From assembly GCF_900289195.1 (NCBI RefSeq), contig NZ_OMOH01000009.1:54069-86068 (forward strand): a DNA stretch of 32,000 nucleotides, given 5' to 3'. Source of the stretch: Propionibacterium ruminifibrarum. Lineage in GTDB: Bacteria > Actinomycetota > Actinomycetes > Propionibacteriales > Propionibacteriaceae. How positions within the stretch are numbered: the first letter of the stretch is position 1; each line of letters begins with the position of its first letter. A program made the position numbers and the translations under genes. Below are positions 2,343-30,279 of this stretch, in pieces. Under the pieces are notes generated by a model. The model saw nothing but the letters and a program-made list of their open reading frames with translations, made no database searches and had not been told where the DNA came from.

Positions 2343-3905
2343 GTGAGCACACGTGTATATGTTGCGTCCCCCGATGCCCAGGCCGATCTGAGCGCCGTTG
2401 CTCAGGCCATCGCCGAGGCCGCGGGCCGCCAGTCCGATCCCGTCGCAGTTTTCCACCCGCTGTCCACGCAGGCCGCCTCCGACGGTCTCGTCGGCGCCTC
2501 CTTCGAGGAATTCGCCAAGAATCCCGATGAGGCCAGCGCCGGCATCATCGAACGTTTCGAGGCCCTCGCCGCGAAGGGCCACGTCGTCGCCGTGGGCACC
2601 GACTACACCGGCGTCACCGCCCCCACCGAGCTGGCCCTCAACGGCCGGCTGGCCGCCGACCTGGCCGCCCCTGTGGTGCTGGCCATCGACGCATCCAAGG
2701 GGCCCGATCACACGCTCGGCGCGGCCCGCGTCGCACTCGACGGGCTGGCCGGCGAGTGCGCCACCGTTGCGGCGATCGTCGCCACCAACCCCTCGCACAC
2801 CGACGCCACCCGCACACTGCTGGCCTCGCTCGGCGTGCCGGCCGCCGTGCTCGGCGACGACCTCGCCGCCGTGCTCGCTGCCGCCTCGGAGCCGGTCGCC
2901 ACCCGCACCCCGGCCCGCTTCAGCTACGAACTCATGGCCCAGGCCAGGTCCGACCTGAAGACCATCGTGCTGCCCGAGAGCGAGGACCCCCGCATTCTCG
3001 AGGCCGCCTCGATCGTCGCGGCCCGCGGTGTCGCCAAGGTCGTGCTGCTCGGCGAGGCCGACGAGGTGCGGGCCGAGGCCGCCAGGCTTGGCTTCAACCT
3101 TGACGGCGTCGAGATCGTCTCGATGAACGACCCGGAGCGGATCGAGACCTACGCCGCCAAGTTCGCCGAACTGCGCGCCAAGAAGGGCGTCACCATCGAA
3201 CAGGCCCGCGAGACCATGACCGACGGCGCCTACTTCGGCACGATGATGGTCTACATGGGCGGAGCCGACGGCCTCGTGTCGGGCGCCAACCACACCACGG
3301 CCAACACCATCCGCCCGGCCCTGCAGCTCATCAAGACCAACCCGGGCATGAAGACCGTCTCGGGCGCCTTCCTCATGAGCCTCAAGGATCGTGTGCTGCT
3401 GTTCGCCGACTGCGCCGTCACCCCGAACCCGGAACCGGCCCAGCTCGCCGACATCGCCGTGGCCAGCGCCGAGACGGCCCGCATGTTCAACATCGACCCG
3501 AAGGTCGCCATGCTGACCTACTCCACGGGCACCTCCGGCAGCGGCCCGGACGTCGACCGGGTCCGCGCCGGCTACGAGGACGCCATCTCGCGCGTCCCGG
3601 ACGAGAAGATCGCCGGCCCGATCCAGTTCGACGCCGCCATCGACCCGGTCGTCGGCAAGAAGAAGATGCCCGACTCCGAGGTGGCCGGCAATGCGACCGT
3701 GTTCGTGTTCCCCGATCTCGAAGCCGGCAACATCGGCTACAAGATCTGCCAGCGCACCGCCGGCGCGGTGGCCATCGGCCCGCTGCTGCAGGGCCTGCGC
3801 CGCCCCGTCAACGACCTGTCGCGCGGCGCCCTCGTCGATGACATCGTCAACACCATCATCATGACCGCCATCCAGGCCCAGGGCACGAGCGGCCCGCTCG
3901 CCTGA
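2343..3905 (+). CDS. pta: Phosphate acetyltransferase
   Basis: The C-terminal PTA_PTB domain is readable (IVLPESEDPRILEAA, SGANHTTANTIRPALQLIK, DCAVTPNP, GNIGYKICQR). GTG start. It sits immediately upstream of ackA. Confidence 0.9.
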   Translation: MSTRVYVASPDAQADLSAVAQAIAEAAGRQSDPVAVFHPLSTQAASDGLVGASFEEFAKNPDEASAGIIERFEALAAKGHVVAVGTDYTGVTAPTELALNGRLAADLAAPVVLAIDASKGPDHTLGAARVALDGLAGECATVAAIVATNPSHTDATRTLLASLGVPAAVLGDDLAAVLAAASEPVATRTPARFSYELMAQARSDLKTIVLPESEDPRILEAASIVAARGVAKVVLLGEADEVRAEAARLGFNLDGVEIVSMNDPERIETYAAKFAELRAKKGVTIEQARETMTDGAYFGTMMVYMGGADGLVSGANHTTANTIRPALQLIKTNPGMKTVSGAFLMSLKDRVLLFADCAVTPNPEPAQLADIAVASAETARMFNIDPKVAMLTYSTGTSGSGPDVDRVRAGYEDAISRVPDEKIAGPIQFDAAIDPVVGKKKMPDSEVAGNATVFVFPDLEAGNIGYKICQRTAGAVAIGPLLQGLRRPVNDLSRGALVDDIVNTIIMTAIQAQGTSGPLA

Positions 3906-3929
3906 GACCCGGACCTGACAAGGAGAGAA

Positions 3930-5120
3930 ATGGCCAAGCCAATCCTGGTGCTGAACTGCGGTTCCAGCTCCCTGAAGTACCAGCTGATCGACCCCGAGTC
4001 CGAGGCCGTGCTGGCCAAGGGGCTGGTGGAGCGCATCGGCGACGCGAACGACGGCATCGTCACCCACGAGGTCGGCGACGACGAGTTCTCCGTCACCCCG
4101 AAACTGCCCGACCACACGGTGGCCCTCGAGGCCGTCTTCTCGATGTTCGCCGACCACGGCCCGTCCCTCGACGACGTCGCGGCCGTCGCCCACCGCACGG
4201 TGCACGGCGGTGACCGCTTCGCGGCCCCGACGGTGATCGACGACGAGGTGCTGGCGACCCTCGAGGAGCTCGTCCCGCTGGCCCCGCTGCACAACCCCGC
4301 GGGCATCAAGGGCATCCGCGCCGCCCTCGAGCTGCTGCCGGGCGTGCCGCACGTCGGCATCTTCGACACCGCGTTCTTCGTCAACCTCCCGGACGAGGCG
4401 TACACCTACGCCATCAACCGCGAGCTGGCGAAGAAGCACTCGATCCGCAAGTACGGCTTCCACGGCACCAGCCACCAGTACATCGCCGGCCTGGTGCCGG
4501 GCGTGCTGGGCGCCGACGCGGGTTCGCTGCGCCAGATCGTCTGCCACCTCGGCAACGGCGCCTCCATCTCGGCCGTCAAGGGCGGCCGGGCCATCGAGAC
4601 CTCGATGGGGCTGACGCCGCTCGCCGGACTGGTCATGGGCACCCGCTCGGGTGACATCGACCCGGGCATCTTCGCCTACCTGCACCGCGCCGAGGGCTGG
4701 GACGTCGACCGGATCGACGCCGAGCTCAACAAGAACTCGGGCATGCTCGGCATGTCGGGCGTCACCGACATGCGGGACGCCGAGGCCCAGTTCGAGGCGG
4801 GCGACGCGGACACGATCAACGCCATGAACGTGTACACGCACCGGCTGGCCTTCTACATCGGCGGCTACGCCGCCCTGCTCGGCGGCCTCGACGCGATCAC
4901 CTTCACCGCGGGCATCGGCGAGAACTCGTCGTTCGTTCGCAAGCTGGTCTGCGACAAGCTGGCCGGTATCGGCGTCGTCCTCGACGAGGAGTTGAACAGC
5001 AAGCGCGACAAGGCCCCGCACCTCATCTCGGCCCCCGACTCGGCGGTCAAGGTGCTGGTCATCAGCACCAACGAGGAACTGGCCATGGCGCAGCAGGCCG
5101 CGAGCCTGCTGGCCGGCTGA
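3930..5120 (+). CDS. ackA: Acetate kinase
   Basis: ILVLNCGSSSLKYQL N-terminus, HRTVHGG, PLHNPA, FDTAFF, GFHGTSHQY and NEELAMA motifs. SD AAGGAGAG lies upstream. Confidence 0.95.
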   Translation: MAKPILVLNCGSSSLKYQLIDPESEAVLAKGLVERIGDANDGIVTHEVGDDEFSVTPKLPDHTVALEAVFSMFADHGPSLDDVAAVAHRTVHGGDRFAAPTVIDDEVLATLEELVPLAPLHNPAGIKGIRAALELLPGVPHVGIFDTAFFVNLPDEAYTYAINRELAKKHSIRKYGFHGTSHQYIAGLVPGVLGADAGSLRQIVCHLGNGASISAVKGGRAIETSMGLTPLAGLVMGTRSGDIDPGIFAYLHRAEGWDVDRIDAELNKNSGMLGMSGVTDMRDAEAQFEAGDADTINAMNVYTHRLAFYIGGYAALLGGLDAITFTAGIGENSSFVRKLVCDKLAGIGVVLDEELNSKRDKAPHLISAPDSAVKVLVISTNEELAMAQQAASLLAG

Positions 5121-6921: not shown

Positions 6922-8010
6922 TCAGGGCTTCACGGTGCCATCGGCGTAGCGCGTGATGGTTCCGTGCTCGAATTCCTGCGTGCAGGTGCCGTCCTCATCG
7001 CAGCTCGCGTCGCCCACCGGGGCACCGTACTGGCTCGACAGGCCACCTGCCGCGTACCAGGTCTCGTAAGTGGCGCCCTCCACGACGGATCTGCGGCCGT
7101 TGGAGTCGAAGTAGACGAAGCCGCCCTGGAAGTACTGGAACACCGTACCGTTGTCGAAGCCCGTGTCATCGAGCGGGTAGCCGAGGGGGCCGTCCCACCA
7201 GCCGTGGTCCTCCCAGTAGTTCGCGATATCGCGGAGGACGCCATGGGCACCGGTGCTGGGGCTCCAGGCGATCTGCCCGAACTGGAAGAGCTGGATGCAG
7301 CCCCCCTCCGGGGGGAGGCCGCAGACCTGATCGCTCACCGGGTACTCGAGGATGAGACTCAGGTCCTTCCCGTACCACGCATCCTTGATGGCACCGGCCA
7401 TGATGTAGGCGAAAAACCCGTCCCTGTTCTGGCGGACGATCTGCCCGTACTGGAAGTCCTGGATGCAGCCGTATCCATCGACCTCGCAGTCCTCATCACC
7501 GGTGGGATAGCCGAGGGAACCCTCCTCCTTGCCGGCGAGTTCCCATGCCTGGGCGATCCTGCCGGAGGTGGGGTGGGAGCCGGTAGCCGGAGACCAGTGG
7601 ATCTGCCCGCCCTCGAAGCTCTGGTAGCAGCCGCCGCCCTTGAGCCCGCAGACCTCGTCACTGGTGGGGTAGCCGAGGAAACCCCGGTGGGAATCCAACG
7701 AGACCCACTTGCCCCGGATGGACCCGACGCTGACGTGGGCGCCGGTCGCCTCGGACCAGTAGATGGCCCCGCCCTGGAAGTTCTGGTAGCAGCCGCCCCT
7801 CCTCAGCCCGCAGACCTCCTTGCTGGTGGGCTGGCCCAGACGACTGGAGGCGCCGCCATAGGATTCGTACTTCGCGCTGATCTCAGAGGCGGCAACGGCC
7901 TGGCCGGTGGGGACCAGCTGGATCAGGCCGACCAGCATCAGGAGCGCCGCGGTGAGCGCGGCCACGCGCCGGGCCGATGGCGCATGGACCAGTGTGCGGT
8001 GGTTCGTCAT
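6922..8010 (-). CDS. Secreted LGFP-repeat protein (six LGFP-like repeats, no catalytic domain seen)
   Basis: Signal-peptide-like MTNHRTLVHAPSARRVAALTAALLMLVGLIQLVPTGQAVA, followed by repeats of the form LGYPTSDEVCGLKGGGCYQSFEGGQIHWS. Start placed at ATG 8010 rather than the track start 8052. Confidence 0.8.
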   Translation of the reverse strand: MTNHRTLVHAPSARRVAALTAALLMLVGLIQLVPTGQAVAASEISAKYESYGGASSRLGQPTSKEVCGLRRGGCYQNFQGGAIYWSEATGAHVSVGSIRGKWVSLDSHRGFLGYPTSDEVCGLKGGGCYQSFEGGQIHWSPATGSHPTSGRIAQAWELAGKEEGSLGYPTGDEDCEVDGYGCIQDFQYGQIVRQNRDGFFAYIMAGAIKDAWYGKDLSLILEYPVSDQVCGLPPEGGCIQLFQFGQIAWSPSTGAHGVLRDIANYWEDHGWWDGPLGYPLDDTGFDNGTVFQYFQGGFVYFDSNGRRSVVEGATYETWYAAGGLSSQYGAPVGDASCDEDGTCTQEFEHGTITRYADGTVKP

Positions 8011-8325
8011 GGGGGTTCGTGTCCTCTCTCGTGGGCTCGGGTTGATGACCATCCACGGTCATCCCCCATCGGACGACCCGATGGGGCGGTGGGACGCCCA
8101 TCCCGAACGCCCCAGCAAGGCCGGCGTCACGAACAGCTCGAGCAATGACGTGCCTGCCGGTCGGCGCCTTTGGCAGCGGTGGGGTCGCTGCATGATAGGC
8201 CAGCAAGTTGAGAACCACCTGAGGGATTAACCCGCCTGTTGTCCGGGAATCCTGAGAATCACCTGAGTCATCGCTCGTCGGCACGCCCTGAGCACAGGAC
8301 CGCTGCCGCCAGATAACCTTGTGCC

Positions 8326-9297
8326 ATGACCGATCCCCACGCCCCAGGCGGTGCTGCCGCACCCCGCGTCGTCGCGGTCGTCGTGGCGTGGAATCGCGCC
8401 GAACTGCTCGGCCGCTGTCTCGACGGGCTGGGAGCGCAGACGCGCCGGCCCGACGCGCTGGTCGTCATCGACAATGCCTCGACCGACGAGTCGCCGCACG
8501 TGGCGGCCGAGCACCCGGCGGTCACCGAGGTCGTCACCATGGCGACGAACACTGGTGGCGCCGGCGGCTTCGCCTCGGGTATCGCGGTGGCCTGCAACCG
8601 CTACGACGCCGACCTGGTGTGGATCATGGACGACGACACGGTCCCCGGCCCCGGGGCGCTGCAGGCCCTCCTGGAGGTCCGTGACCGCTACCCGCGCCCT
8701 CCGGCGGTGCTGGCCAGCCGCGCCGACTGGCACGACGGCCGTGAGCACCCGATGAACACGCCGCGGGCCCGGGTCGGCGCGAGCCGCGAACGCAGACGCG
8801 ACGCCGCGCGCGTGGGGTGCCGCCAGATCCGTTCGGCATCGTTCGTCTCGATCCTGATCGACGCCCAGGCGATCCGCGCCGAGGGCCTGCCGATCAGCGA
8901 CTACTTCCTGTGGAACGACGACTTCGAGTACACGACGCGCCTGCTGCGCTTCCGCGAGGGCCTGTACGTCCCGGCCAGCCGCGTCCAGCACCTGACGAAG
9001 ACGTTCGGGGACACGAGCGCGGATCCGGGGCCGCGGTTCTACCAGGAGGTGCGCAACAAGGTGTGGATGTTCACCCGCTCGCCCGCCCTGGCGGCCTGGG
9101 AGCGCCTGCTCTACGGGGGCTCGACCCTGCGCCGCTGGGCTGCGACCGTCAAGGCCTCATCCGACCGCCGCATCCTGCGCAAGGGTCTGCGGGCCGGGCT
9201 GCGTGACGGCCTGCGCCACGGCCCGCGCAGCAATGCCCGGGTGCTGGCCGGCACGCCGGTCGAGGCCGACGTCCTCGCCATCGAGGGGGACAGATGA
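8326..9297 (+). CDS. GT2 glycosyltransferase, GlfT1-like
   Basis: VVAVVVAWNRAELLGRCLDGLGAQTRRPDALVVIDNASTDES, NTGGAGGFASG and WIMDDDTVP (DXD). This pattern matches my recollection of mycobacterial GlfT1 (Rv3782)-type GT2 enzymes. Confidence 0.75.
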   Translation: MTDPHAPGGAAAPRVVAVVVAWNRAELLGRCLDGLGAQTRRPDALVVIDNASTDESPHVAAEHPAVTEVVTMATNTGGAGGFASGIAVACNRYDADLVWIMDDDTVPGPGALQALLEVRDRYPRPPAVLASRADWHDGREHPMNTPRARVGASRERRRDAARVGCRQIRSASFVSILIDAQAIRAEGLPISDYFLWNDDFEYTTRLLRFREGLYVPASRVQHLTKTFGDTSADPGPRFYQEVRNKVWMFTRSPALAAWERLLYGGSTLRRWAATVKASSDRRILRKGLRAGLRDGLRHGPRSNARVLAGTPVEADVLAIEGDR

Positions 9298-10172
9298 CCG
9301 CCTTCAGCGTTCTGCTGCCCGTCTACGCCGGCGACGACCCGGCGTTCTTCACCCGCGCCCTGCGGTCGGTGAGCATCGACCAGAGCCTCAAGCCGGACGA
9401 GATCGTCATCGTCCGCGACGGCGAGGTGAGCGACGAGATCGAGGCGATCCTCGACGCCGCCATCGACGGCTCGGCGGTCGGCGGGGTGCCCGTCACCGTC
9501 GTGCGCATCGGCCACAACCGTGGCCTGGCGGACGCTCTCGTCGAAGGCCTCAAGGCCTGCCGCTACGAGATCGTCGCCCGCGCCGACGCCGATGACATCT
9601 CGCTGCCCCACCGGTTCGCCACACAGATCCCCGTCATCGTGGGCGACGGAGGTGAGCCACTGGACCTGTTGGGCGCGGCGATCCAGGAGTTCGAGACGGA
9701 AGCGGGCCCGCGGGGTGTGGTGCGGGTACTGCCCACCACCCCGGAGAAGATCACCGAGATGGCGCGTTTCCGCGACCCCTTCAACCATCCGACGGTCGTC
9801 TACCGCAAGGCCGCTGTGGCCCGTGCCGGGGGCTACCGCAGGCTCGCCAAGATGGAGGACTACTGGCTGTTCGTCCGCATGCTGCAAACGGGGTCCAGGG
9901 TGGCCAATCTGGCCGAGCCCCTGGTGCTCTACCGGGTCGGCGCCGGCGCCTACCAGCGCCGCGGCGGCGAGGAGATGCTGCGCAGCGAGATCGAACTGCA
10001 GCGGGCCTTCATGACATCGGGTTTCGTCACCCGGCGGCAGGGGCTGCGCAACATCGTCGTGCGCGGCGGCTACCGTCTCGTGCCCACATGGGCCCGCAAA
10101 CCGGCGTACCGGATCATGGTGCGACACGGCAGGGGCAGGGTGCAGACCAAGGGGCGGCCCGCATCCTGCTGA
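9294..10172 (+). CDS. GT2 glycosyltransferase
   Basis: FSVLLPVYAGDDPAFFTRALRSVSIDQSLKPDEIVIVRDG and ARADADDIS motifs. ATGA overlap with the upstream GT2 (9294..9297). Confidence 0.8.
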   Translation: MTAFSVLLPVYAGDDPAFFTRALRSVSIDQSLKPDEIVIVRDGEVSDEIEAILDAAIDGSAVGGVPVTVVRIGHNRGLADALVEGLKACRYEIVARADADDISLPHRFATQIPVIVGDGGEPLDLLGAAIQEFETEAGPRGVVRVLPTTPEKITEMARFRDPFNHPTVVYRKAAVARAGGYRRLAKMEDYWLFVRMLQTGSRVANLAEPLVLYRVGAGAYQRRGGEEMLRSEIELQRAFMTSGFVTRRQGLRNIVVRGGYRLVPTWARKPAYRIMVRHGRGRVQTKGRPASC

Positions 10173-10810
10173 CGTGCTCTGTGAAGCACTGCATCGGGGA
10201 AGCTGACAGCTTTTGCAGCTGCGGGCAGGCATGGGAGCTGGTCCTGTCCATTCTTCGTGCCATCGGGGCACTGGCCTACCCGAGCGGAGTCTCCGGGCAT
10301 CCCCAGACCATCTAGGTCACTCATTGCTACGTAGTAGAGACGTACCTACCTCGGGCCCGAGGGTACCGATTGGATACCTCCAAGCCTCTGGATTCGAACG
10401 CGGTCTGAGAACAGGAGGACTTGCGCAAAACTTATGTATCGTGTACCTTGTACTGCATACAGAAAAGGAGGTGCACCGCCAACTACTAAACACAACAACT
10501 ACTTGACGACTCCCAATGTGCTAAGCACCGCAGGAAGCAGACAGCACCGATGCAAGCGGCTTCGGCGCGGATCGCACGCGACCCAGTACCCGCCAAGTCA
10601 TTTAAAAGCGCTCAGGGTAAAAAGACTCGCTGAATGGATCGCCACGCAGGGGATCAAATTAGCACAGTGCGCACGCACTACTACCCACTCGACTCCTTGG
10701 GTTTGGGTCGAAGGCGGATTAATCAGTGTCTCCACCCACTGGTCAGGGAGGAACGTAAAAAAAAACCGCTCGTTAGAAACAGACAAACTCATTAAACAAA
10801 GGAGGTTAGA

Positions 10811-11998
10811 ATGACAGACAGTACCCTAGCTGCCGCAATTAAAGCGGCAGTCGAGGTGCAAGGCATAGCCTGGGGAGGTCGAACCCGCGTCGGCACTCCA
10901 GAACAGCTCGCCGATGGCTTATCCAATGCCCTGCAACACGCGGACGGCATGACCAGCCGCGAAGCCGTTGCCGCTATGATCGGTGAATCCGCCCAAGAAA
11001 CCGACTGGTACTGCAGCCTTGTCGAATATGGCGGCGCTAATGCATGGTATGCACCATACTATGGCCGAGGCTGCATTCAGCTCACGCATCAGAGCAACTA
11101 CAGCGCCTTCGGGGCATGGGCACAGAAACTCGGCTATGCCACAAGTTCCGCCGATATGGTATCCAACCCGAACAAGGTTGCCACGATGCCTTGGGCATGG
11201 CTTGCCTGCATCTGGTACTTTGCCGCGAACATCCCAGCCAGTTATTGGACAAACCGTAATTGGAACGCCATCAGCGGTCTTATTAACGCCGGTGACGCTA
11301 GCTACTACGTGCCAGCATTCGAACTGCGCACTCGATCAATCATCGCCGCACTCAACATTCTTAACCGAAACAATTGGACTTATGAAGGAGACGGACTCAT
11401 GGCAGTAACCCAGGATGACCTCAGGAAGATCCACGACGCAGTTTGGCACGGTGTGTCAGGTGCGAAACTCATCACTAATCGCCGCCTTGGTCGCGGTGAA
11501 TGGGCAGAGACCCTGCTCGGCTCCAATGAGCAGCGTCTAGAATCTCTTATCCCGAATTCGGTATGGGGTAAAACCGTCAAACGTGCTGGTTTGCCTTCAG
11601 ATGACCCTCGTGCTGATAAAGAAGTCTCAGTCGGCACCATCATGGCATATATGGACTCGTTCGTTCTTGACGTGAAGAACTCGATCGTTGCCGCAGTATC
11701 CTCCATTGCGACTGAAACTGATACTGAACAGATCATTAAAGCTGTCGACAACGCCATTAACGAATCTGTGGATCAATATGCCCAACTGCACGAACAGAAG
11801 CCCAGATCAGACGGATCCGCTCTACTCGACTCCGCCGTTCACGTCGTCTCATCCGGAGAAACACTGGATACTATTGCCGTAGAGCATAACACGACAACTG
11901 CCGAGATCATCGCTGCAAACCCAGACTTGGATTCCAATCTCCTCGAAGTTGGCCGAAAGATTGTTGTCCCTGTCACAGCCACCAAACAGAAAGATTGA
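10811..11998 (+). CDS. Phage-type endolysin: N-terminal GH19 (chitinase-like lysozyme) domain, uncharacterised middle region, C-terminal LysM
   Basis: GH19 hallmarks are GESAQETDWYCSLVEYGG...YYGRGCIQLTHQSNY and WAWLACIWYF. The C-terminal LysM is HVVSSGETLDTIAVEHNTTTAEIIAANPDLDSNLLEVGRKIVVP. A strong SD AAAGGAGG lies 5 nt upstream of the ATG. Confidence 0.8.
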   Translation: MTDSTLAAAIKAAVEVQGIAWGGRTRVGTPEQLADGLSNALQHADGMTSREAVAAMIGESAQETDWYCSLVEYGGANAWYAPYYGRGCIQLTHQSNYSAFGAWAQKLGYATSSADMVSNPNKVATMPWAWLACIWYFAANIPASYWTNRNWNAISGLINAGDASYYVPAFELRTRSIIAALNILNRNNWTYEGDGLMAVTQDDLRKIHDAVWHGVSGAKLITNRRLGRGEWAETLLGSNEQRLESLIPNSVWGKTVKRAGLPSDDPRADKEVSVGTIMAYMDSFVLDVKNSIVAAVSSIATETDTEQIIKAVDNAINESVDQYAQLHEQKPRSDGSALLDSAVHVVSSGETLDTIAVEHNTTTAEIIAANPDLDSNLLEVGRKIVVPVTATKQKD

Positions 11999-11999
11999 T

Positions 12000-12365
12000 A
12001 TGAGCTGTACCAGTGACATCCTCACAAGAGCTTTCTGGAAGGGGACTCTCGAGAGAGCTATTAAAACTGTTATTCAGACATTCGCCGCTCTCAGTTTGTC
12101 AGCCCTTGGTCTTTACCAGACGCCAAGTGGCTCTGAACTTGTCGCTGCTGCCAGAGCCGTGTCCGGTAACGCCATCCTGACTGTCATCGTCGCCGCGCTC
12201 CTCGCTGGTGCTGTCTCAGTCTGCACAAGTCTCCTCAATCCGTCCTTTGTCGCTGGGGACACCCTGTTGCCCGCAACCGACATGATGGCAGAGGTCGCTG
12301 CTGACCTTCAGCACTCCGCGTCCGAACAGGACGAGTCTGAACCTGGCACAGTCCCGGCGGTCTGA
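12000..12365 (+). CDS. Holin, phage r1t-holin-like family
   Basis: ATG at 12000, 1 nt after the endolysin stop. FWKGTLERAIKTVIQTFAALSLSALG plus a second TM helix (AILTVIVAALLAGAVSV) and an acidic C-tail match the actinophage r1t-type holin pattern (from memory). Its position directly after the lysin supports the call. Confidence 0.6.
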   Translation: MSCTSDILTRAFWKGTLERAIKTVIQTFAALSLSALGLYQTPSGSELVAAARAVSGNAILTVIVAALLAGAVSVCTSLLNPSFVAGDTLLPATDMMAEVAADLQHSASEQDESEPGTVPAV

Positions 12366-12375
12366 TCCTCCACAC

Positions 12376-12413
12376 GGGCCCCGCCCCTCACAGGGGGCGG
12401 GGCCCTTCCCTTT
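12376..12413 (+). terminator. Rho-independent terminator of the lysis cassette
   Basis: Perfect 12-bp stem gggccccgcccc (12376..12387) / ggggcggggccc (12394..12405) with a 6-nt loop, followed by ttcccttt. It begins 11 nt after the holin stop. Confidence 0.75.
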
Positions 12414-12528
12414 GATTGCTTAGAGGCACTTCCACCTCGGCTCAGACCCACTCATCGTGGGATACCCTTATTATTGGATTGAGCTGAGATTACTCGCTTG
12501 CAGTTTGTACGTAAGTTAAGCACGGAGA

Positions 12529-13056
12529 GTGACCAACCTGCTACCGAAAGGCATCATCGTGGTCGTGAACGAAGCGTTGCGAGACCTGCTCACCGAAGCA
12601 CAGCCCGGCATGGCTCTCGACGGACTCGTAACCAAGGCAAAACAGTCGGGCATCAGGATCAGCCGCAACACTATAGCCCGAGCTCGTCGCGGCGATCTGG
12701 TCAATCCGACGGAGACCACCTTGCAGGCATTAGCACAGCTATTCGGTATCGACGTCCGGCGGCTGCGCGAAGTAATCGGACGCAGGCCTGGCGAACGTGG
12801 TCTTGGCCCGTGGACACCTGACCCCCGATCAGCATCACTTACTCAAGCTCAGCGTGAAGCGCTGGACCGGTTGATCGTGACGATCGTTGAGCAACAGCAA
12901 GACGATGTCACACCGAAGGGCGAGGTGCCACTGCACGCTGTACCCGACTGGGCAGACCCAATCGCTGCTAGAACAGCAGACCGGACTACTGATCGCGTGG
13001 AACTCGATGAGGAAGACACGAGTCAAGATCCTGATGATTGGGAACATAAGCAATAA
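12529..13056 (+). CDS. XRE-family helix-turn-helix regulator (ImmR/CI-like) with acidic C-terminal tail
   Basis: NEALRDLLTEAQPGMALDGLVTKAKQSGIRISRNTIARARRGDLVNPTETTLQALAQLFGIDV fits the HTH_XRE layout. An in-frame TAA at 12517..12519 limits the start to GTG 12529 or GTG 12559; the latter has GAAAGG 7 nt upstream. Confidence 0.65.
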   Translation: MTNLLPKGIIVVVNEALRDLLTEAQPGMALDGLVTKAKQSGIRISRNTIARARRGDLVNPTETTLQALAQLFGIDVRRLREVIGRRPGERGLGPWTPDPRSASLTQAQREALDRLIVTIVEQQQDDVTPKGEVPLHAVPDWADPIAARTADRTTDRVELDEEDTSQDPDDWEHKQ

Positions 13057-13193
13057 GGCACATAACCTAATGATAATGATTGTCTTCTCGATTGCATGGC
13101 GCTGGCACAATCTTGACACGGTCAGAACTAGTATTCAGTGGCCCCGTACTTGCTCTCATGAGATTGTCAGCGGCTGGCTCTAATATTTAGGGT

Positions 13194-13610
13194 ATGTACC
13201 ACCCTTGGCAGCGCTTTAATGCTGAAGCGCAGTGGACTCTCCAAACTGCACACCTCCCACGCGGACACATGGGTCAAATTGACTGGCAAACACACACCGT
13301 CATCATCGACCGAAACCTCCTCCAAAGTGAACGGCGATGCACCATCACTCACGAACTGGTCCACATCGAACGAGGTCCCGTGCCCTCCGATCCATGGCTG
13401 AAACAGCGAGAGGAACAAGCCGTTGAGGCAGAAGCCGCTCGCCGTCTCATCACCCTTGAAGCTCTCGCCGATGCTCTCGCGTGGTCGTCCCAGCCAGCTG
13501 AGGTCGCCGAAGAATTATGGGTGGACATGCAAACCCTTGACGTAAGGATTTCCGGCCTCAGCGATACCGAACGGACATGGCTCGATCGTAGATTGGAAAT
13601 CGATCAGTGA
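13194..13610 (+). CDS. Minimal ImmA/IrrE-family (COG2856-like) zinc metallopeptidase
   Basis: HEXXH motif in ITHELVHIERG. It is small (138 aa) and lies directly downstream of the XRE gene in immR-immA order. The ATG is preceded by TAATAT (13181..13186) + 7 nt with no SD. Confidence 0.65.
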   Translation: MYHPWQRFNAEAQWTLQTAHLPRGHMGQIDWQTHTVIIDRNLLQSERRCTITHELVHIERGPVPSDPWLKQREEQAVEAEAARRLITLEALADALAWSSQPAEVAEELWVDMQTLDVRISGLSDTERTWLDRRLEIDQ

Positions 13611-13954
13611 GTACACGACCCCCTGCGACACAGAATGACAATCCGAGCCACCAGAGATGAATCCAAGCAAACTTGCATGTCGGGTTGCTGTCAGCTGGGT
13701 CATCGCGCGACTGACTCACACCAAACACAAACAACCATGTCGGCCACGCATGCGAAATCATTCAAGAAGTACTTACAACATGCTGGTCATCGAGATCATT
13801 TGACACTTACCTAAAGTTTAAAGAAGACGATCGAGCAAGCCAACGACAATTCTCATTCGGAGTCAGAGGCCTAAGGCTTTGCAATCGTCAGAGCTTCACT
13901 AAACTGTGTCGCGGAGTTGAACCCAACTCTCGTGACACTATCAATCGCATACTG

Positions 13955-15110
13955 TTATGCGGTGAAATACGTCATCATCCACCAGAAGAACAGAAAGCCT
14001 AGCGCAGAGTCAAGATTCAGCAGCCCGAATAATTCTCGCTGAATAACGACCAGTGCATCGGTACCGTTAATCCAGCGCAGACCGAGGTCTGGCACATAGG
14101 AGACATTTTCACCGCCAATTCCTGACATACCTTTGGAGATGAGGCAGCTTCATCGAGATGTTTGTTAATGAATCTCACATTATCAGACAACTTATCTGTC
14201 ATATAGAAATGGCTCAGGTTGTACTGGGCAATCAAGTAAACCAAGTTTACCCTGCAAGAGTTGACTATCACCGTTGCACCGAGATCCCCGTTGCCATTAA
14301 TCATGCTCCATGAGTGAGATCTAGTCTGAACTAAGAATGGTTGCGTTCTTCTGCATCAGGTATTGCTCACTTACCTCACCATCCAACCCAAGAACACGAG
14401 ACTAGATAGTGTATACCAAACCCCCAGTCAAGCTGCACATACGGGAAAATGAACACCAGCGCGAATAGCCCGAGCACAAATCTACTAATTACCGTTGCCC
14501 CGATGAATATCTTCAACAAAATCAGAAGTGGAAGCGGCTACATTGTAAGAACCGCAACCATCGTCACCGCATGGGTAGCCGTAATGACATCAAGACGCGA
14601 AAGAGAGGCAAGAGGGCGATACAGTCGTGAAAGATTACCGTGTAGAACATTGATCCGACCAGCAAGCCGAGATCCATGTCTGTGGCATTACCAGTGGGCA
14701 GAGCATAAACCGAGGCGCTCAAATGAAAAGCGATGTCTCACCGCTGGGAATGACGAGTGGATTCCCTATCGCTCATAGGATCCTTCGCCCAATACCCCTG
14801 CGACCAACACGATTCCGACCAGATAACAAAGAACGACAAGTTGTTCCCTGCTGGGCGCCCCTTCGGCAGGCAAGGGCGAAGCCATCTGAAAGTTCCAAGG
14901 GCTACAAACAACATTGCATAATCAAATATCCACCATGCCTCCACCACTTCCGAACACACTTGCTGGAAACGCTGATCGCTGTGAGGCTCAGAAGCGGGGC
15001 TAGCAGCAGCGCCAAGAAAGGCTTCTGGCACCACCCGGTAGCCACGATCACTTGGGCAAACAAAACAAGCAGAGCTGTGGCGAACCCGGGTATGAGATCT
15101 CACCACGTCA
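13955..15110 (-). pseudogene. Frameshift-riddled integral membrane protein gene (function unknown; possibly a polysaccharide-modifying or polymerase-type protein)
   Basis: Minus-strand membrane-like fragments read in alternating frames. 15099..14902: DLIPGFATALLVLFAQVIVATGW...LALLLAPLLSLTAISV. 14885..14766: MASPLPAEGAPSREQLVVLCYLVGIVLVAGVLG. 14677..14564: MDLGLLVGSMFYTVIFHDCIALLPLF. 14537..14376: PLPLLILLKIFIGATVISRFVLGLFALVFIFPYVQLDWGFGIHYLV. 14304..: MINGNGDLGATVIV. 14128..13955: MSGIGGENVSYVPDLGLRWINGTDALVVIQRELFGLLNLDSALGFLFFWWMMTYFTA. Confidence 0.4.
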
Positions 15111-15211
15111 TTGTGTTCTCAATTCAAGTTCTGGTTCGAACATTCTCAGCGCAGCCTCTGACATCATCATGGACTCCGAGCAACCATGAGGTGCGCAAAC
15201 AGTCATCATGC

Positions 15212-16120
15212 TCAGACCCGTTCTGCTGCGGTCAACGGCGGACCGCCGATACGCACCCGCACCGGAACCGCGGCCCGCTCCTCATCGGTGAACAGCCGCT
15301 TGGCCTTCTCCGCCTCGCTGAGCGGGGGCCGCTCCGGGTCCTCACTGCCGTCCAGGGCCCGGCCACGCAGGAACCGCACCGCCTGGTCACACGGGCCGTC
15401 GAAGACCAGCCTGCCGCGCTCCATGACCAGACCGCGCTTGCAGAACTTCTCGACCATGTCGAGATCGTGACTGACGATGACGATCGTCTTGCCATCGCGC
15501 ACCATCGAGCGGATGAGCGCCTTGCACTTCTCCTGGAAGGGCTCGTCGCCGACTGCGAGGATCTCATCGACGAGGAAGACGTCGGGGTTGGTGTGCACCG
15601 CGACGGAGAAGGCAAGACGCAGGTACATGCCCGAGGAGTAGAACTTCACCTCGGTGTTGATGAAATCGCCGATGTCGGCGAACTCCAGGATGTCGTCGTA
15701 GGCGGCGTCGATCTCCTCCTTGGTCATGCCGAGGATCGCGCCGTTGAGGTAGACGTTGTCGTGGCCGGTCAGGTCGGGGTGGAAGCCGGCGCCCACCTCG
15801 ATGAGGCCTGCCACCTTGCCCTTGATGCCGACGGCCCCGCCGTCGGGGTGCATGACGCCGCTGATGAGTTTCAGGGTCGTGGACTTGCCCGAACCGTTGA
15901 AGCCCATGAGGGCGACCGACTCGCCGTCGGCGATGTCGAAACTGACGTCGTCCATGGCCTGGAACTCGTTGGTGATGTCCTTCTTGCGGCCCTTGAACAG
16001 CCAGACGACGGCTTCCTTGATGGACCGGGTGTGCCGCAGCAGGAAGGTCTTGGTGACGTGCTGGGCGGTGACGACAACTCGTTCGTCACGAGGTTCGAGT
16101 GCGATCTTCCTGGCCATCAC
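15212..16120 (-). CDS. wzt: Polysaccharide ABC exporter, ATP-binding subunit (Wzt/TagH/RfbE-type)
   Basis: Walker A GFNGSGKSTT, signature YSSGMYLRLAF, Walker B VFLVDEILAVGD. The start (GTG 16120 or ATG 16117) overlaps the wzm stop. Confidence 0.9.
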   Translation of the reverse strand: MMARKIALEPRDERVVVTAQHVTKTFLLRHTRSIKEAVVWLFKGRKKDITNEFQAMDDVSFDIADGESVALMGFNGSGKSTTLKLISGVMHPDGGAVGIKGKVAGLIEVGAGFHPDLTGHDNVYLNGAILGMTKEEIDAAYDDILEFADIGDFINTEVKFYSSGMYLRLAFSVAVHTNPDVFLVDEILAVGDEPFQEKCKALIRSMVRDGKTIVIVSHDLDMVEKFCKRGLVMERGRLVFDGPCDQAVRFLRGRALDGSEDPERPPLSEAEKAKRLFTDEERAAVPVRVRIGGPPLTAAERV

Positions 16121-17014: not shown

Positions 17015-20316
<3,302 letters not shown>

Positions 20317-20430
20317 TCATCCGGACGTGCGCCAGCACACGGAGTTGGGCCGAAGAGCCCGGAGGGCGAAGGCCCTGCACCGGTGACGAGGAGCACCCAT
20401 GGATGACCCGCAACACCTAGACTCCCTCAC

Positions 20431-21732
20431 GTGAGTGATGAATCCAGTGCCTTGTCCGACGATGGCCCCGGGGCCCGGACAGCCTCCCCGGGACAGACCT
20501 CGGCCATCCTGGCGGCCTCGGTGGTCTCGGCGGCCGCCAGCCTGATCATCACCGTTCTCACCGCACGAGTCCTGTCGGTCGACGACAACGCGGAGTTCCT
20601 CGTCTTCTGGTCGCTGTACTTCGGGATCGTCGGCATCATCGCCGGGGTGCAGACCGAGAGCACCCGAGCGGTCACCGCCTCGCAGCTGCCCACCGGCCGG
20701 CCCGCAGGCGCTCACGTGCAGACGGCAGCGCTCATCCTGGGGCTGTCGGTGGGTGCGGTCATCGCCGCCACCTCACCACTGTGGCTCGAGGTCTTCCTGC
20801 ACCGCAGTTCACCGTGGGTCGTGCTGGCAGTCGTCGCCGGTGTGGTGCTCAGCGCGGGTCACTTCACCACCCTGGGGGCGCTGTCCGGCCAGAAATCCTG
20901 GTACACCTTCGCCTGGTTGATCGGCGTGGAGGCCATCGTGCGGCCCGTCGGAGCCCTCGTCGCCGGGCTGGTGCTGGCCCGGGCCCTGCTGCCGGTCCAG
21001 GTCAGCGTGGTGCTGCCCGCCGCAGTGTGGATCCTGTTCTGCCTGATCACCCCCTCCGGTCGACGCTCCTTCGCCGCCCGGGCCGACGTCCCGCTCGGAC
21101 AACTGCTGCGCAACAACATCATGACGATGCTGTCGTCGGCCTCCTGGGCGCTGCTGGTCACCGGTTTCCCCGCCCTGTTGCGGGCCACCGGTGGCGACGT
21201 CGACTCGGGCGTCCTGGCCGGGACGATCCTCGCCATCACCCTCACCAGAGCACCGATCATGATCCCGCTCCAGGCCGTCCAGGGGGTGGCGATCAACAAG
21301 TTCACCCAGGACCAGGGCCGCAACCTCGGGGTGATCTTCACATTCATGGCAGGCGTGCTGGGCATCGGTGTTCTCGGCGGAATCCTGGCAAGCCTCATCG
21401 GCCCATGGATCATCCGGGTCGTCTACGGGCCGGCCTACCAGGTGGCCCCGCTCACCGTCGGCGTGCTCACCGTCGCGGCCGCCGGGATGGGCTGGCTGGT
21501 GCTCACCGGCGCCGCAACCCTGGGCATCAGCGCCCACCGGGCCTACACCGGGGGATGGTTCCTCGCTGCCGTCTGCGCCTTCGGCATCGCCTCCCTTCCC
21601 CTGGATCTGGTGACCCGGGCAACCCTGGCCCTGGGTATCGGCCCGCTCCTGGGAGTCGCCGTGCACGTCATCACTCTGGTGCGGCACAGTCGTAGCTTGT
21701 CCGAGGAGGAAACGGCGTCGGTGCCGGGCTGA
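20431..21732 (+). CDS. Polytopic membrane protein, Wzx/MOP-type polysaccharide flippase-like
   Basis: 433 aa with about 12 predicted hydrophobic helices. The N-terminal SLIITVLTARVLSVDDNAEFLVFWSLYFGIVGIIAG resembles the polysaccharide biosynthesis protein family. GTG start is preceded by TAGACT + 7 nt. Confidence 0.5.
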   Translation: MSDESSALSDDGPGARTASPGQTSAILAASVVSAAASLIITVLTARVLSVDDNAEFLVFWSLYFGIVGIIAGVQTESTRAVTASQLPTGRPAGAHVQTAALILGLSVGAVIAATSPLWLEVFLHRSSPWVVLAVVAGVVLSAGHFTTLGALSGQKSWYTFAWLIGVEAIVRPVGALVAGLVLARALLPVQVSVVLPAAVWILFCLITPSGRRSFAARADVPLGQLLRNNIMTMLSSASWALLVTGFPALLRATGGDVDSGVLAGTILAITLTRAPIMIPLQAVQGVAINKFTQDQGRNLGVIFTFMAGVLGIGVLGGILASLIGPWIIRVVYGPAYQVAPLTVGVLTVAAAGMGWLVLTGAATLGISAHRAYTGGWFLAAVCAFGIASLPLDLVTRATLALGIGPLLGVAVHVITLVRHSRSLSEEETASVPG

Positions 21733-21872
21733 GTGTCACCGACGCCGGGCCGCACTCGGCGCCGAGACCCGCTCGCACTCGACTCATCGAATCGAGCCAT
21801 GATCGCCTTGGGGCGGCTCGGGTCGGGGCCGTATCCGATCGAGCGGCCAGGCCCGGCCGCAATCAGCGAGGG

Positions 21873-22850
21873 TCAGGCCTCCACCCCGTAGACCCGTGAG
21901 GCGTAGGCACCATAAAGCGTCGCATAGGGGCCGGGCAGCAGTTTCATCACCCCCGCCGCGACACCCAGCAGCGGGTGGGTGCGCAGCGCGTCAACGATCT
22001 CACCCCAGCTCAGTTCTCGGGTGCATCCGCGGACGTGGTCGATGCGCTCTGCGGCCGGTTTCGCGGTGATCCCCTGGTGGGCCACCGAGAGCCACGCGGC
22101 GGTCTTCGAGGTGGCCAGGGCGCGTTCGGTGACGGCATCGGTGTGCTCGGCCACTGCCTGGCGCAGCAGATCGACCAGGGTCGCGGTCTCCTGTCGGGTG
22201 GCGACGCGCCCCCAGGTCAGCGACGTGGGTGAGACGTGGTAGCGGATGCCCGGCTCGGACAGGTAGCGCACAGTGCGGGCCCGGGACAGCGCCGAGACGG
22301 TGAAGACGTTGTCCTCGGCCCGTCGGATGGGCGGGAATCGCAGATCGGTGATCGCCCTGGCGCGGAACAGCTTGTCCCACACGTAATTGGTTTGTTCTTC
22401 GGCGAGGGTCGCCGCTGCCGCCTCGGTCCCGGACAGGTCCCCGGTGCGCCGGGGGGTCCGTAGCCGTTCGGAGCCGTCGGTGGACACGATGAGGTGGGCG
22501 CAGGCCACGACGTCGGTGCGTTCGTCGGTGGCGGCGAGCATCATCTCCAGCCGATCGGGCAGGTATTCGTCGTCGGAGTCCAGGAATCCGATCCATTCCC
22601 CGGATGCCGCCTCCAAACCGATGTTGCGCGCCATCGCCGGGCCCTGGTTGGTGCTGGTGGACAACACCTTCAGTCGGCCGCCGAGCCTTGTGGCAAGGGA
22701 TTCCAGGATGGCGACGGTGCCGTCGGTGGAGCAGTCGTCAACGACGAGCAGCTCCCAGTCGTCCATGGTCTGGGCGACCACCGATTTAACGGCCCTGGTG
22801 ATCGTGGCCTGGGCATTGTGGGCGGCCACGATGACACTCACGCGTGGCAT
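21873..22850 (-). CDS. GT2 glycosyltransferase
   Basis: MPRVSVIVAAHNAQATITRAVKSVVAQTMDDWELLVVDDCSTDGT and FLDSDDEY (DXD). SD GAGAGGAG lies upstream. Confidence 0.85.
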   Translation of the reverse strand: MPRVSVIVAAHNAQATITRAVKSVVAQTMDDWELLVVDDCSTDGTVAILESLATRLGGRLKVLSTSTNQGPAMARNIGLEAASGEWIGFLDSDDEYLPDRLEMMLAATDERTDVVACAHLIVSTDGSERLRTPRRTGDLSGTEAAAATLAEEQTNYVWDKLFRARAITDLRFPPIRRAEDNVFTVSALSRARTVRYLSEPGIRYHVSPTSLTWGRVATRQETATLVDLLRQAVAEHTDAVTERALATSKTAAWLSVAHQGITAKPAAERIDHVRGCTRELSWGEIVDALRTHPLLGVAAGVMKLLPGPYATLYGAYASRVYGVEA

Positions 22851-22902
22851 CTCGACTCCTCTCGACCCACCGCAGGACGGGGGCAGCTGCGGGGCGGACC
22901 GC

Positions 22903-23270
22903 TCATCCGCCCACCGTCACGGTCGCCGGACGACGTGGCGGGCCAGATCGCACACGGCATCCCCAGTGCCCCTGGGCACCGCCTTCGGCGGCAGGATGTC
23001 GGCACGCAACCTGGAGGACGGGTGATTGCGTGCGACGGCCGGCGCCTTCGCCCGGGCCACGGTTGCCGTTGGCGCCCGGACTGGTCTCGTTGAACTCGTA
23101 GCCGACCCGCTCGACGCCCAGGGACCCGAACCATCCGGGGACCGAGTCGCCGGGACAGCCGTCGACGACGATCGACCGGAAGTCCGTGTAGGTCCGGGCG
23201 AGGACGCTGCGGCCGACGATTCTCATCGGATCGACGTCCCCGCAATGGAGAACAGGACGTCAACGGTCAT
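22903..23270 (-). pseudogene. Frameshifted and truncated GT2 paralog of the 24689..25570 gene
   Basis: ATG at 23270 gives MTVDVLFSIAGTSIR*, whereas the paralog reads MTVDVLFPYYGD. After a -1 shift it reads GDVDPMRIVGRSVLARTYTDFRSIVVDGCPGDSVPGWFGSLGVERVGYEFNETSPGANGN, against the paralog's GDVELMKLAVHSVLRQSYSDFNLIVVDDGYPDDSIPGWFASLNDARVSYERNEHNLGANAN. Only about the first third of the gene is present. Confidence 0.65.
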
Positions 23271-23294
23271 GGCAGTTCCTTCGCATTGGGTAGC

Positions 23295-23583
23295 TCACAC
23301 TCTAGATGCTGGAGAGCGCGTCCGTTTGGGTTCGTGGTCGCAGGCGGTCGGTGAGCGTTCGAGGAGGGCCTGGGCGACCTCCCGTTCACCGAGCCTGGGA
23401 TCGGCGGGTCCCCGGATGATCGGCATGCCCTCTGCGGTACAGATGGCAGGGCCTGAATCCCCGGAAGAACAGGGAGCGTGAGGCGCAGCAGCAGTGGCCG
23501 ACATGCACGGTCAGGAGGCTCTCCAGGTCATTGCCCACACACTGGTTCTTGAGGCCCTTCTTCCCCTGTCCCGGCACCGCCAC
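23295..23583 (-). pseudogene. Possible rmlC (dTDP-4-dehydrorhamnose 3,5-epimerase) N-terminal remnant
   Basis: Two overlapping minus-strand frames read ...LTVHVGHCCCASRSLFFRGF... and ...ICTAEGMPIIRGPAD... These loosely follow the RmlC N-terminal blocks (H/F)xD(E/S)RGxFxE and NxSxSxxGVLRGLH. It is divergent from rmlB. The similarity is weak and recalled from memory. Confidence 0.3.
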
Positions 23584-23616
23584 ACCAGCCCGACCAATTC
23601 GGACTCACTCCTCTAG

Positions 23617-26870: not shown

Positions 26871-27542
26871 GTGCTCACTGACGCCTGGCTGGTGGTGCCT
26901 CTGTTCAACGAGGGCCCCGTTGTCGGCGACGTGATCCGGGACGCCCTTGGAACCTTCCCGAAGATCGTCTGCGTCGATGACGGCTCCTCGGACGACTCTG
27001 CCAACATCGCCCGCAAGGCGGGTGCCGTCGTCGTCTCGCACCCCATCAACCTCGGTCAGGGCGCCGCGCTGCAGACGGGGCTGAGTTACGCGCTGCAGGA
27101 CAGGGCGGCGAACTACTTCGTGACCTTCGACTCGGACGGCCAGCACCAGGTCAGCGATGCTGCGGCGATGGTCGAACGGCTTCGCGCCGAACCCGATGTC
27201 GACATCATCCTGGGCTCGCGGTTCCTGGACGACGAGGTGGAGGCGGGCGCGCTCAAACGGCTCGTGCTCAAGACGGCAGTGCGTTTCGAGCGCTTCAGTA
27301 CGAAACTCGACGTCACCGACACCCACAACGGTCTTCGCGCGTTGAACCGCCACGCGGCGAGCACGATCCACATCCACCAGAACCGCATGGCCCACGGCTC
27401 TGAGTTCCTGCGCGAGATCGCCACCCACAAGCTCTCCTACCGCGAGCACCCGGTGCACGTCGTGTACACCGACTACTCGCGCGCCAAGGGCCAGTCCCTG
27501 TGGAATTCGGTGAACATCCTCTTCGACCTCATGTTCGGGTGA
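26871..27542 (+). CDS. GT2 polyprenyl-phosphate sugar synthase (GtrB/Ppm1-like)
   Basis: WLVVPLFNEGPVVGDVI...IVCVDDGSSDDSANIARKAGAVVVSHPINLGQGAALQTG...FDSDGQH. GTG start has GGGGGA upstream. Confidence 0.8.
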   Translation: MLTDAWLVVPLFNEGPVVGDVIRDALGTFPKIVCVDDGSSDDSANIARKAGAVVVSHPINLGQGAALQTGLSYALQDRAANYFVTFDSDGQHQVSDAAAMVERLRAEPDVDIILGSRFLDDEVEAGALKRLVLKTAVRFERFSTKLDVTDTHNGLRALNRHAASTIHIHQNRMAHGSEFLREIATHKLSYREHPVHVVYTDYSRAKGQSLWNSVNILFDLMFG

Positions 27543-27547
27543 GCATC

Positions 27548-27922: not shown

Positions 27923-28085
27923 CCCGGGTTCGACCTGTGAGTCGTGTCACCGCGAACCACCATGAGGCGAGAAATAATTCTCGTCTCATCTTGATGACGC
28001 AAAAAACCAATGAACTACAAACCCAGAACCATGCGGTCGTCCTGACCGTATCGCTACGTATCGAGCAAGGAAACCGGGGCCACAG

Positions 28086-30131: not shown

Positions 30132-30279
30132 CCGACGGCGCCACCTCAGCCCAAGCTCAACCCTCACCTGAGGGTCGAGACTCGGTCTTGCGACAGGTTG
30201 AAATGTTGACTGAAACTATCGTGGCTTGGTTCCGCCCCCAGCCAGGCGTACTTCTCATGAAGCACGGACTAGGAGTTCC

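Follow-up and report, generated by a model that had tools for sequence, protein, structure and literature searches.

A lysin-holin cassette and phage-type repressor/ImmA genes kept intact in a wall-polysaccharide locus of Propionibacterium ruminifibrarum

Background

Retained or domesticated prophage lysis cassettes are already a known kind of genetic element, and the one described here, from Propionibacterium ruminifibrarum, adds another. It is an endolysin (lysin) gene and a holin gene, accompanied by phage-type repressor and ImmA genes, in a low-GC island of a 32,000-nucleotide stretch of contig NZ_OMOH01000009.1 (assembly GCF_900289195.1); this whole stretch is called the window below. Among the closest described systems, the pyocin-locus endolysin Lys of Pseudomonas aeruginosa acts in explosive cell lysis (PMC4834629), and the holin-endolysin of PBSX in Bacillus subtilis acts in vesicle formation (PMC5589764). 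As in these cases, the island has a phage-derived holin and endolysin kept in a non-infectious element, and control by DNA damage is plausible here too, through the repressor/protease pair. However, the pyocin and PBSX modules are parts of large elements still able to assemble tailocin or PBSX particles, whereas the island holds lysis and immunity genes only, within 3.4 kb.

The lysis cassettes of actinobacterial siphophages have the same lysin-then-holin order as the island and share ancestry with its genes. The glycosidase domains of Mycobacterium and Gordonia phage lysin A proteins are of the GH19 type and are 24-35% identical to the island lysin, and the island holin is homologous to the holin (gp21-like, class II) of the Cutibacterium acnes phage endolysin-holin pair gp20-gp21. 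The lysins of C. acnes phages are annotated as amidases, not as GH19 enzymes. A combination of GH19 domain, repeat-bearing middle and LysM domain was otherwise seen only in metagenomic phages. The island cassette differs from all these actinophage cassettes in having no phage around it.

In type 10 secretion, a holin and a peptidoglycan hydrolase release Tc toxins, ChiA and TcdA/B (PMC10847048, PMC10109510, PMC10516005, PMC9527704), and, as here, an orphan holin and a muralytic enzyme lie in a non-phage locus. The island differs in its lack of cargo, spanin and dedicated activator, in its Gram-positive actinobacterial host, and in the phage repressor and ImmA alongside. Since no cargo candidate lies in or next to it, we do not count the island among type 10 secretion loci.

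Switches of the ImmR/ImmA type are found in ICEBs1 and phage phi105 of Bacillus, and as IrrE/DdrO in Deinococcus. Known pairs of this type act at a divergent promoter and thereby control either excision and the lytic genes or the genes of DNA repair. The island resembles them in that a helix-turn-helix (HTH) repressor gene is followed by a gene for an M78 (HExxH) peptidase, but its pair lies downstream of the lysis cassette and co-directional with it, with no divergent cro-like gene or integrase.

Incomplete prophages normally lose lysis genes among the first (PMC7744054), and the retention of such genes in a minimal remnant is therefore unusual.

Results and discussion

Purifying selection on four intact genes

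The island contains four intact open reading frames (ORFs) beside one decayed gene:

10811..11998, + strand, endolysin of 395 amino acids (aa), uninterrupted
12000..12365, + strand, holin of 121 aa, uninterrupted, its ATG 1 nt past the lysin TGA (11996-11998)
12529..13056, + strand, Xre/cI-like HTH repressor of 175 aa, intact, its exact start codon uncertain
13194..13610, + strand, ImmA/IrrE-type M78 metallopeptidase of 138 aa with an HELVH motif, intact
13944..15111 (8814-10778 in the second allele, L004), - strand, DUF6541 membrane-protein pseudogene with 6 in-frame stops relative to the reference, 12 frameshifting indels and a 763-bp deletion

A first-pass annotation, made from the sequence of the window, had described the lysin and holin frames as uninterrupted, as the reading frames bear out, and had proposed a dN/dS analysis. 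We carried this out by the Nei-Gojobori method, with Fisher tests against 1, between the window and a second island allele, L004 (SRR30827662). L004 occupies the same chromosomal site, shares the right junction and has the same four ORFs, all intact; it is 69% identical to the window in the lysin, 72% in the holin, 90% in the HTH repressor and 89% in ImmA. The values are:

GH19 domain of the lysin, dN/dS 0.06 (dN 0.056, dS 0.85; Fisher p = 1e-29)
Whole lysin, dN/dS 0.18 (dN 0.214, dS 1.20)
Holin, dN/dS 0.27 (dN 0.164, dS 0.62; Fisher p = 2e-7)
HTH repressor, dN/dS 0.27 (dN 0.045, dS 0.17; Fisher p = 1e-4)
ImmA, dN/dS 0.26 (dN 0.053, dS 0.20; Fisher p = 3e-4)

All are significantly below 1 (Fisher p 1e-37 to 3e-4). 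Differences in the four ORFs are concentrated at third codon positions, and the coding indels are in frame. The DUF6541 pseudogene was compared against its L004 copy, which is intact and encodes 654 aa; here the differences are distributed 50/58/62 over the three codon positions, with a dN/dS of 0.57 and a dS of 0.26. This neighbour decayed neutrally over a comparable divergence, and it carries ~18 disabling mutations in 1.17 kb, against 0 in the 2.5 kb of the four ORFs. Had they been hit at the pseudogene rate, the four ORFs should carry ~38 such mutations, ~24 of them in the lysin and holin; none is observed (P ~2e-17 for the four ORFs). The absence of disabling mutations, together with dN/dS below 1, indicates that selection kept the genes intact.

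Purifying selection has thus acted on all four genes, and, given that the block stayed undamaged while the neighbouring gene rotted, it was probably kept for a use. On this interpretation, which we infer, selection acts in the chromosome and has preserved a useful block. That the cassette has been retained at the level of the host with a lytic function is, in our judgement, an evenly poised proposition, and it is weighed below against other explanations.

The DNA around the cassette had been taken in the first-pass annotation to be non-coding or pseudogenised. This is true of the leader at 10186..10782; it overlooked the two intact phage-type ORFs at 12529..13056 and 13194..13610. The stretch 13611..15211, counted there among the decayed island DNA, proves to hold the DUF6541 pseudogene of the wall locus (13944..15111) and is not phage DNA.

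The endolysin

The lysin has a GH19-type glycosidase domain at residues ~1-190, a variable, repeat-bearing middle at ~195-330 and a C-terminal LysM domain at 344-387, which agrees with the GH19-LysM architecture proposed initially. The LysM domain lies well above the Pfam cut-off (PF01476, 3e-10, 40.2 bits against 20.9), and its fold is supported by Foldseek LysM matches with a root-mean-square deviation of ~1 A. The GH19 Pfam score (PF00182) is 23.5 bits, just below the cut-off of 25.5, which several close lysin homologues pass. The lysin also matches PHROG endolysin families (5e-15 to 1e-9), and a sequence and profile search of the PDB returns GH19 endolysins and chitinases. The best Foldseek folds for its AlphaFold model, which is moderately confident (mean per-residue confidence, pLDDT, 69), are the GH19 phage endolysins 8p8e, 4ok7 and 9ms7, at weak E-values of 3e-3 to 7e-3.

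The GH19 signature (Y/F)GRGxIQL(T/S)xxxNY occurs as YYGRGCIQLTHQSNY at residues 83-97, where it aligns with 1wvu, 3w3e, 1dxj and 8p8e, and G85, R86, G87, I89, Q90, T92 and N96 are invariant in the lysin family alignment. Conservation of the catalytic glutamates was another check that had been suggested, and the candidates E59, E63 and E72 do not vary among the 24 family members or between the island alleles. E63 and E72, 9 residues apart, form a candidate acid/base pair. Which residue has which role can be assigned only tentatively, since the attempt to map the glutamates by sequence onto solved GH19 structures failed (the alignments span the GRG motif only and miss the glutamate stretch) and residues 68-86 are poorly modelled. 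The lysin departs from the phages at 5 of 86 phage-invariant columns, where the leave-one-out range for the phages is 0-7; judged by this alignment, there is no sign of relaxed constraint relative to the phages. Neither a signal peptide nor a membrane span is predicted in the lysin, and a search for hidden compensating frameshifts in its divergent middle found none.

The middle of the lysin (11430-11680 in the window, 6270-6500 in L004, alignment columns 200-300) contains 1-2 copies of a ~40-aa motif, VW..V.R.GLP..DPR.GK.V..G.I..Y.D.FV, which has no database match and lies where the model has low confidence. The two island alleles differ in how many copies they carry. The motif may be a wall-binding repeat.

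The holin

In hydropathy analysis the holin has two hydrophobic spans (~20-39 and 56-80), and its C-terminal tail is acidic. The protein matches the holin family phrog_443 at 6e-13, and tblastn with it finds the annotated holins of 75 Propionibacterium/Cutibacterium phages, among which C. acnes phage holins are 32-37% identical. Holins encoded behind lysin homologues in two phage contigs (L005 and L022) share 60-62% identity with it. The threshold of the Pfam model Phage_r1t_holin (PF16945) was not reached (18.2 against 26.9 bits, over residues 9-39 only). The start of the holin 1 nt past the lysin stop had been recorded in the first-pass annotation and is borne out, and the holin is probably translationally coupled to the lysin. 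By homology the two proteins form a canonical holin-dependent lysis pair.

Phage relatives and the second allele

In a search that covered 5.8 billion proteins, lysin homologues other than that of L004 were at most 55% identical (the closest examined, 48-55%). Each of the two island lysins has the other as its closest relative by a wide margin, the next match being at 55%. The homologue contigs examined (P0003, P0004, P0005, P0006 and P0009) are phage, with the lysin gene following tape-measure and tail genes and immediately preceding the gene of a homologous holin. The lysin-then-holin order of the island is that of these phage relatives, and the cassette is phage-derived.

Both alleles have the same truncated gene set and a left limit of homology ~28 bp before the lysin ATG. 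Three further assemblies (DRR848947-9), 99.5-99.9% identical to the window, are uninformative save for a 2-nt difference in an A-run. A scan of IMG/VR yielded a single, distant lysin (36% identity).

Signals around the cassette

The following elements accompany the cassette:

10186..10782, no strand assigned, low-GC leader upstream of the lysin, non-coding, ~600 bp
10436..10460 (5346-5370 in L004), + strand, perfect palindrome of 25 bp, GTATcgtGTAC-CTT-GTACtgcATAC, then AGGAGGTG
10798..10805, + strand, lysin Shine-Dalgarno sequence AAAGGAGG, 5 nt ahead of the ATG at 10811
12376..12415, + strand, intrinsic terminator after the holin, with a hairpin at 12376-12405, a 13-bp stem (12 G-C) and a T-rich tail

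The near-consensus Shine-Dalgarno sequence with its 5-nt spacing, noted earlier, is confirmed, and L004 retains this ribosome-binding site as AAGGAGG. A GC stem with a T-rich terminator does close the unit, as had been proposed; we measure its stem as 13 bp. The terminator has a folding energy of -33.7 kcal/mol (z = -4.2 against shuffles) and is kept in L004, where one stem pair has changed in a compensatory manner from C-G to T-A.

Between the two alleles the leader aligns in one 39-bp block only, and it has no homology to the phage genes found upstream of lysins. The 25-bp palindrome is identical in both alleles within this otherwise unalignable DNA, and occurs once in the window, where 0.03 chance matches are expected. 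It is a candidate operator or promoter element.

In the related phages L005 (9606-10004) and L022 (313-711), a conserved 132-aa protein is encoded directly upstream of the lysin and overlaps its start. By eye, its N-terminus is apparently hydrophobic and its middle charged and heptad-like, and it could be a further lysis-accessory protein. It is absent from the island. An island ORF at 10434..10814 was considered as its counterpart, given the same position, and was rejected because it is neither homologous nor conserved.

An A-run at 10749-10758, 53 nt upstream of the lysin start, is 2 bases shorter in two assemblies that are 99.5-99.9% identical to the window (L001 and L002). This difference near the lysin ribosome-binding site is either an assembly error or homopolymer length variation.

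Repressor and ImmA genes

The HTH protein matches PHROG transcriptional repressors, and its Pfam HTH_3 score of 21.8 bits is slightly under the cut-off of 23. ImmA matches PF06114 (5e-7, 30 bits against a cut-off of 22) and phrog_87 (3e-17). Homologues of the two proteins, 56-75% identical, occupy the lysogeny modules of Propionibacterium prophages beside integrases; the ImmA homologues among them are 65-75% identical and adjoin the integrase genes. The adjacency of an HTH gene and an HExxH M78 gene identifies the two as a pair of the ImmR/ImmA type, in which cleavage of the repressor is putative.

The island and its locus

10178..15210, no strand assigned, whole low-GC island, ~5 kb, GC 46-60% against ~70% around it

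The island lies between convergent host genes, a GT2 glycosyltransferase gene at 9294..10172 (+) and a gene for a Wzt-like ABC ATPase at 15212..16120 (-). Two GT2 genes are present on its left, and on its right, on the opposite strand, are genes for a Wzt/Wzm-type ABC exporter, GlfT2 and UDP-galactopyranose mutase (Glf). The host locus is a wall-polysaccharide locus of the galactofuran type. The site was compared in the three nearest species genomes, those of P. australiense, P. acidifaciens and a Propionibacterium metagenome-assembled genome (MAG). In island-free sites the GT2 and ABC stop codons are ~27 bp apart (P. australiense, L009) or ~130-140 bp apart (L010 and L011); as the two genes abut in the three relatives, the island is an insertion. 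It is thus missing from these three relatives and present in L004 and DRR848947-9, which answers in part a survey of presence and absence that the first-pass annotation had suggested.

That annotation had also found no accompanying phage, while warning that the cassette might be the edge of a larger prophage. Both flanks of the island within the window consist of host genes, and the site is empty in the relatives, which upholds the former and rules out the latter. No flanking direct repeats resembling att sites, tRNA genes or Rfam families were found marking the island, and it contains no integrase, structural or replication genes or remnants of them. Comparison of 10173-10810, 12366-12528 and 13611-15211 by tblastx and blastn with 11 phage or prophage loci likewise found no remnant of a phage gene or integrase. 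Among PADLOC defence models, the island proteins have no meaningful match; the sole hit, to the model of a type I specificity subunit, scores 13 bits and is noise.

The island thus has the character of a cryptic (defective) prophage remnant: it is phage-homologous, atypical in GC and absent in sister genomes, and it is without structural, replication or integration genes. Its phage-derived part is a truncated piece of ~3.4 kb, comprising lysin-holin, terminator, cI-like repressor and ImmA. This piece is old temperate-phage DNA that lies beside a DUF6541 gene in a hypervariable, low-GC part of the wall locus.

The wall-polysaccharide loci of related Propionibacterium species repeatedly contain DUF6541 genes (orthologues or paralogues). 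The possibility that the island copy is a phage-borne conversion gene was considered and set aside: its only two phage matches are weak and come from faecal contigs labelled "Bacteriophage sp." that carry no annotation, where one match lies at the end of its contig. Because these matches are weak and DUF6541 paralogues are usual in Propionibacterium wall loci, we treat it as a gene of the host locus. A second low-GC patch (27500-30200, 55-59%) contains an intact 681-aa DUF6541 paralogue (ORF 28086-30131, +; Pfam 4e-162), which is only 29% identical to the island copy.

The closest genome is that of P. australiense, whose pta-ackA region is 95-98% identical to the window while other parts of the locus are 64-90% identical, which indicates that the wall locus is hypervariable. 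Against P. australiense NML98A072, nucleotide identity is 64-69% in GlfT2 (17015-19009, -) and ~73% in the region of an LGFP-repeat protein (6922-8052, -), where pta-ackA at ~3000-5000 is the 95-98% region of comparison. This divergence implies very old allelic variation of the wall locus within or near one species. A segment of ~3.2 kb and normal GC (20410-23612), which holds a 433-aa ORF without a Pfam match (20431-21732) and a GT2 gene (21873-22850), is missing from L004 and from the MAG (L010), where its flanks join directly; it appears to be another presence/absence polymorphism of the locus. The first-pass annotation had connected the cassette functionally with the wall glycopolymer. We find nothing beyond co-location to link them, in a locus that is hypervariable and gathers foreign DNA.

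Host-level function and its alternatives

If the cassette serves its host, the repressor would keep the lysis block silent until DNA damage led ImmA to cleave it, with the palindrome at 10436-10460 as the operator through which repressor and ImmA gate the lysis genes. The holin, with two transmembrane domains, would then open the membrane and free the signal-less cytoplasmic lysin. Anchored to peptidoglycan by its LysM domain, the GH19 enzyme would cut glycan strands, and a fraction of the cells would lyse. A more far-reaching proposal is that the four genes are a host-owned suicide switch, in which ImmA/Xre senses DNA damage or phage attack and triggers the holin and lysin, possibly via the palindrome. 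The switch would persist as an old polymorphism of a locus whose wall polysaccharide would be the phage receptor, and would serve either in defence akin to abortive infection or in the regulated supply of extracellular DNA, vesicles or public goods. We regard this as unlikely.

Several observations weigh against retention at the level of the host. The dS between the alleles, 0.17-0.85, compares with 0.014-0.09 in the flanks, so that the alleles are far older than the DNA around them. The island is also a mosaic, with lysis genes much older than the immunity genes: nucleotide identity along it is 84% in GH19, ~48% in the lysin middle, 78% in the holin, 91-93% from the terminator through ImmA and ~80-85% in DUF6541. 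This excess and uneven divergence suggests that recombination, possibly with phages, shaped the island. The dN/dS of GH19 in the island equals the phage-to-phage value of 0.04-0.10, and some or all of the constraint on the lysis genes could have been exerted in phages. The known alleles number two, from one species-level group, and scans of JGI metagenomes by protein and DNA pattern, in which sampling is sparse, found no others. The weakest step of the proposal is the control of the lysis genes by repressor and ImmA, which we infer. No second copy of the palindrome was found near the repressor gene or in related prophages, and a scan upstream of the lysin detected no promoter of the sigma-70 type. 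In the island the repressor and ImmA genes follow the lysis genes in the same direction, whereas the sampled Propionibacterium prophages have converging modules, and the juxtaposition of the two modules may be an accident of rearrangement.

Bobay et al. in 2014 reportedly recognised domesticated prophage genes by purifying selection while resident in the host together with vertical persistence. The first-pass annotation proposed both purifying selection and domestication. The former is upheld by dN/dS values significantly below 1; the latter is not established as to selection acting in the host, since the age of the alleles, the mosaic structure and the number of alleles (two) do not allow selection in the host and in phages to be separated.

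The foremost alternative, which we consider possible though clearly less probable than host-level retention, is that the island is a functionless cryptic-prophage remnant whose lysis genes were recently acquired or refreshed by recombination with phages, so that dN/dS records selection in phages. The phage-like value of GH19 agrees with this, as does the phage-like mosaic formed by a lysis half with a dS of 0.6-0.85 and unalignable upstream DNA next to an immunity half at 0.17-0.20. GC at third codon positions in the island genes, 0.55-0.59, resembles that of related phage contigs and lies well below the 0.90 of host genes; few samples of the host species exist, and donor phages may have gone unsampled. 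Low GC was nevertheless rejected as proof of recent arrival, as neutral change in the DUF6541 pseudogene is AT-directed (101 GC-to-AT against 57 AT-to-GC). Recent replacement also sits poorly with the mutual closeness of the two island lysins, which have no nearer relative in the proteins searched, and with the truncated gene set and left homology limit that the alleles have in common. Moreover, a recent crossover would be expected to leave an upstream phage-gene fragment, of which there is none, and at least one allele must have kept an intact cassette during the decay of DUF6541.

Two histories fit these data. Either an ancient island was kept and its segments were homogenised at different times, or the lysis half was repeatedly replaced from phages. 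Ancient maintenance is plausible since the wall locus also holds very old GlfT2 alleles. It is favoured by the relationship of the two lysins, by the common gene set and junctions, by the lack of an upstream phage fragment and by the persistence of the cassette throughout in at least one lineage.

Prophage remnants that confer repressor-mediated immunity are an established phenomenon. Only the repressor and ImmA might thus be selected, for superinfection immunity to related temperate phages, with the lysis cassette as a silent passenger. Both proteins are homologous to lysogeny proteins of Propionibacterium prophages and under significant purifying selection, and a strong terminator separates their genes from the lysis genes. 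A passenger, however, should decay as DUF6541 did, and the lysin and holin show none of the disabling mutations expected at that rate; GH19 is the most constrained of all the island genes, and the lysin ribosome-binding site and the upstream palindrome are conserved. We consider this explanation a little more unlikely than the suicide switch.

Export of a signal-less protein or of a wall-associated product of the polysaccharide locus, in the manner of type 10 secretion, seems least probable of all: such systems are defined by the placement of an orphan holin and a peptidoglycan hydrolase within a locus that is not of phage origin (PMC10847048, PMC10109510, PMC9527704), and the cassette is co-directional with and downstream of two GT2 genes with no terminator-like site detected between, but the island offers no candidate cargo gene, its neighbours are glycosyltransferases and a Wzm/Wzt exporter with an export route of its own, the closest species have the same locus without the island, and the accompanying genes are phage immunity genes rather than a dedicated activator.

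Significance

Lysis genes are dangerous to their carrier, and in this remnant a killing pair and an immunity switch are kept in two old alleles beside a decaying gene. The island is thereby a clean natural case for the question of why bacteria keep phage lysis genes, and the 3.4-kb size of the block would ease experiments. If the host does not use the cassette, it would be a textbook case of dN/dS in a prophage remnant reflecting phage history rather than host benefit. In a limited literature search, no example of regulated autolysis or of release by holin and hydrolase turned up in the Propionibacteriaceae; if retention for use by the host is true, the island would extend these processes to that family.

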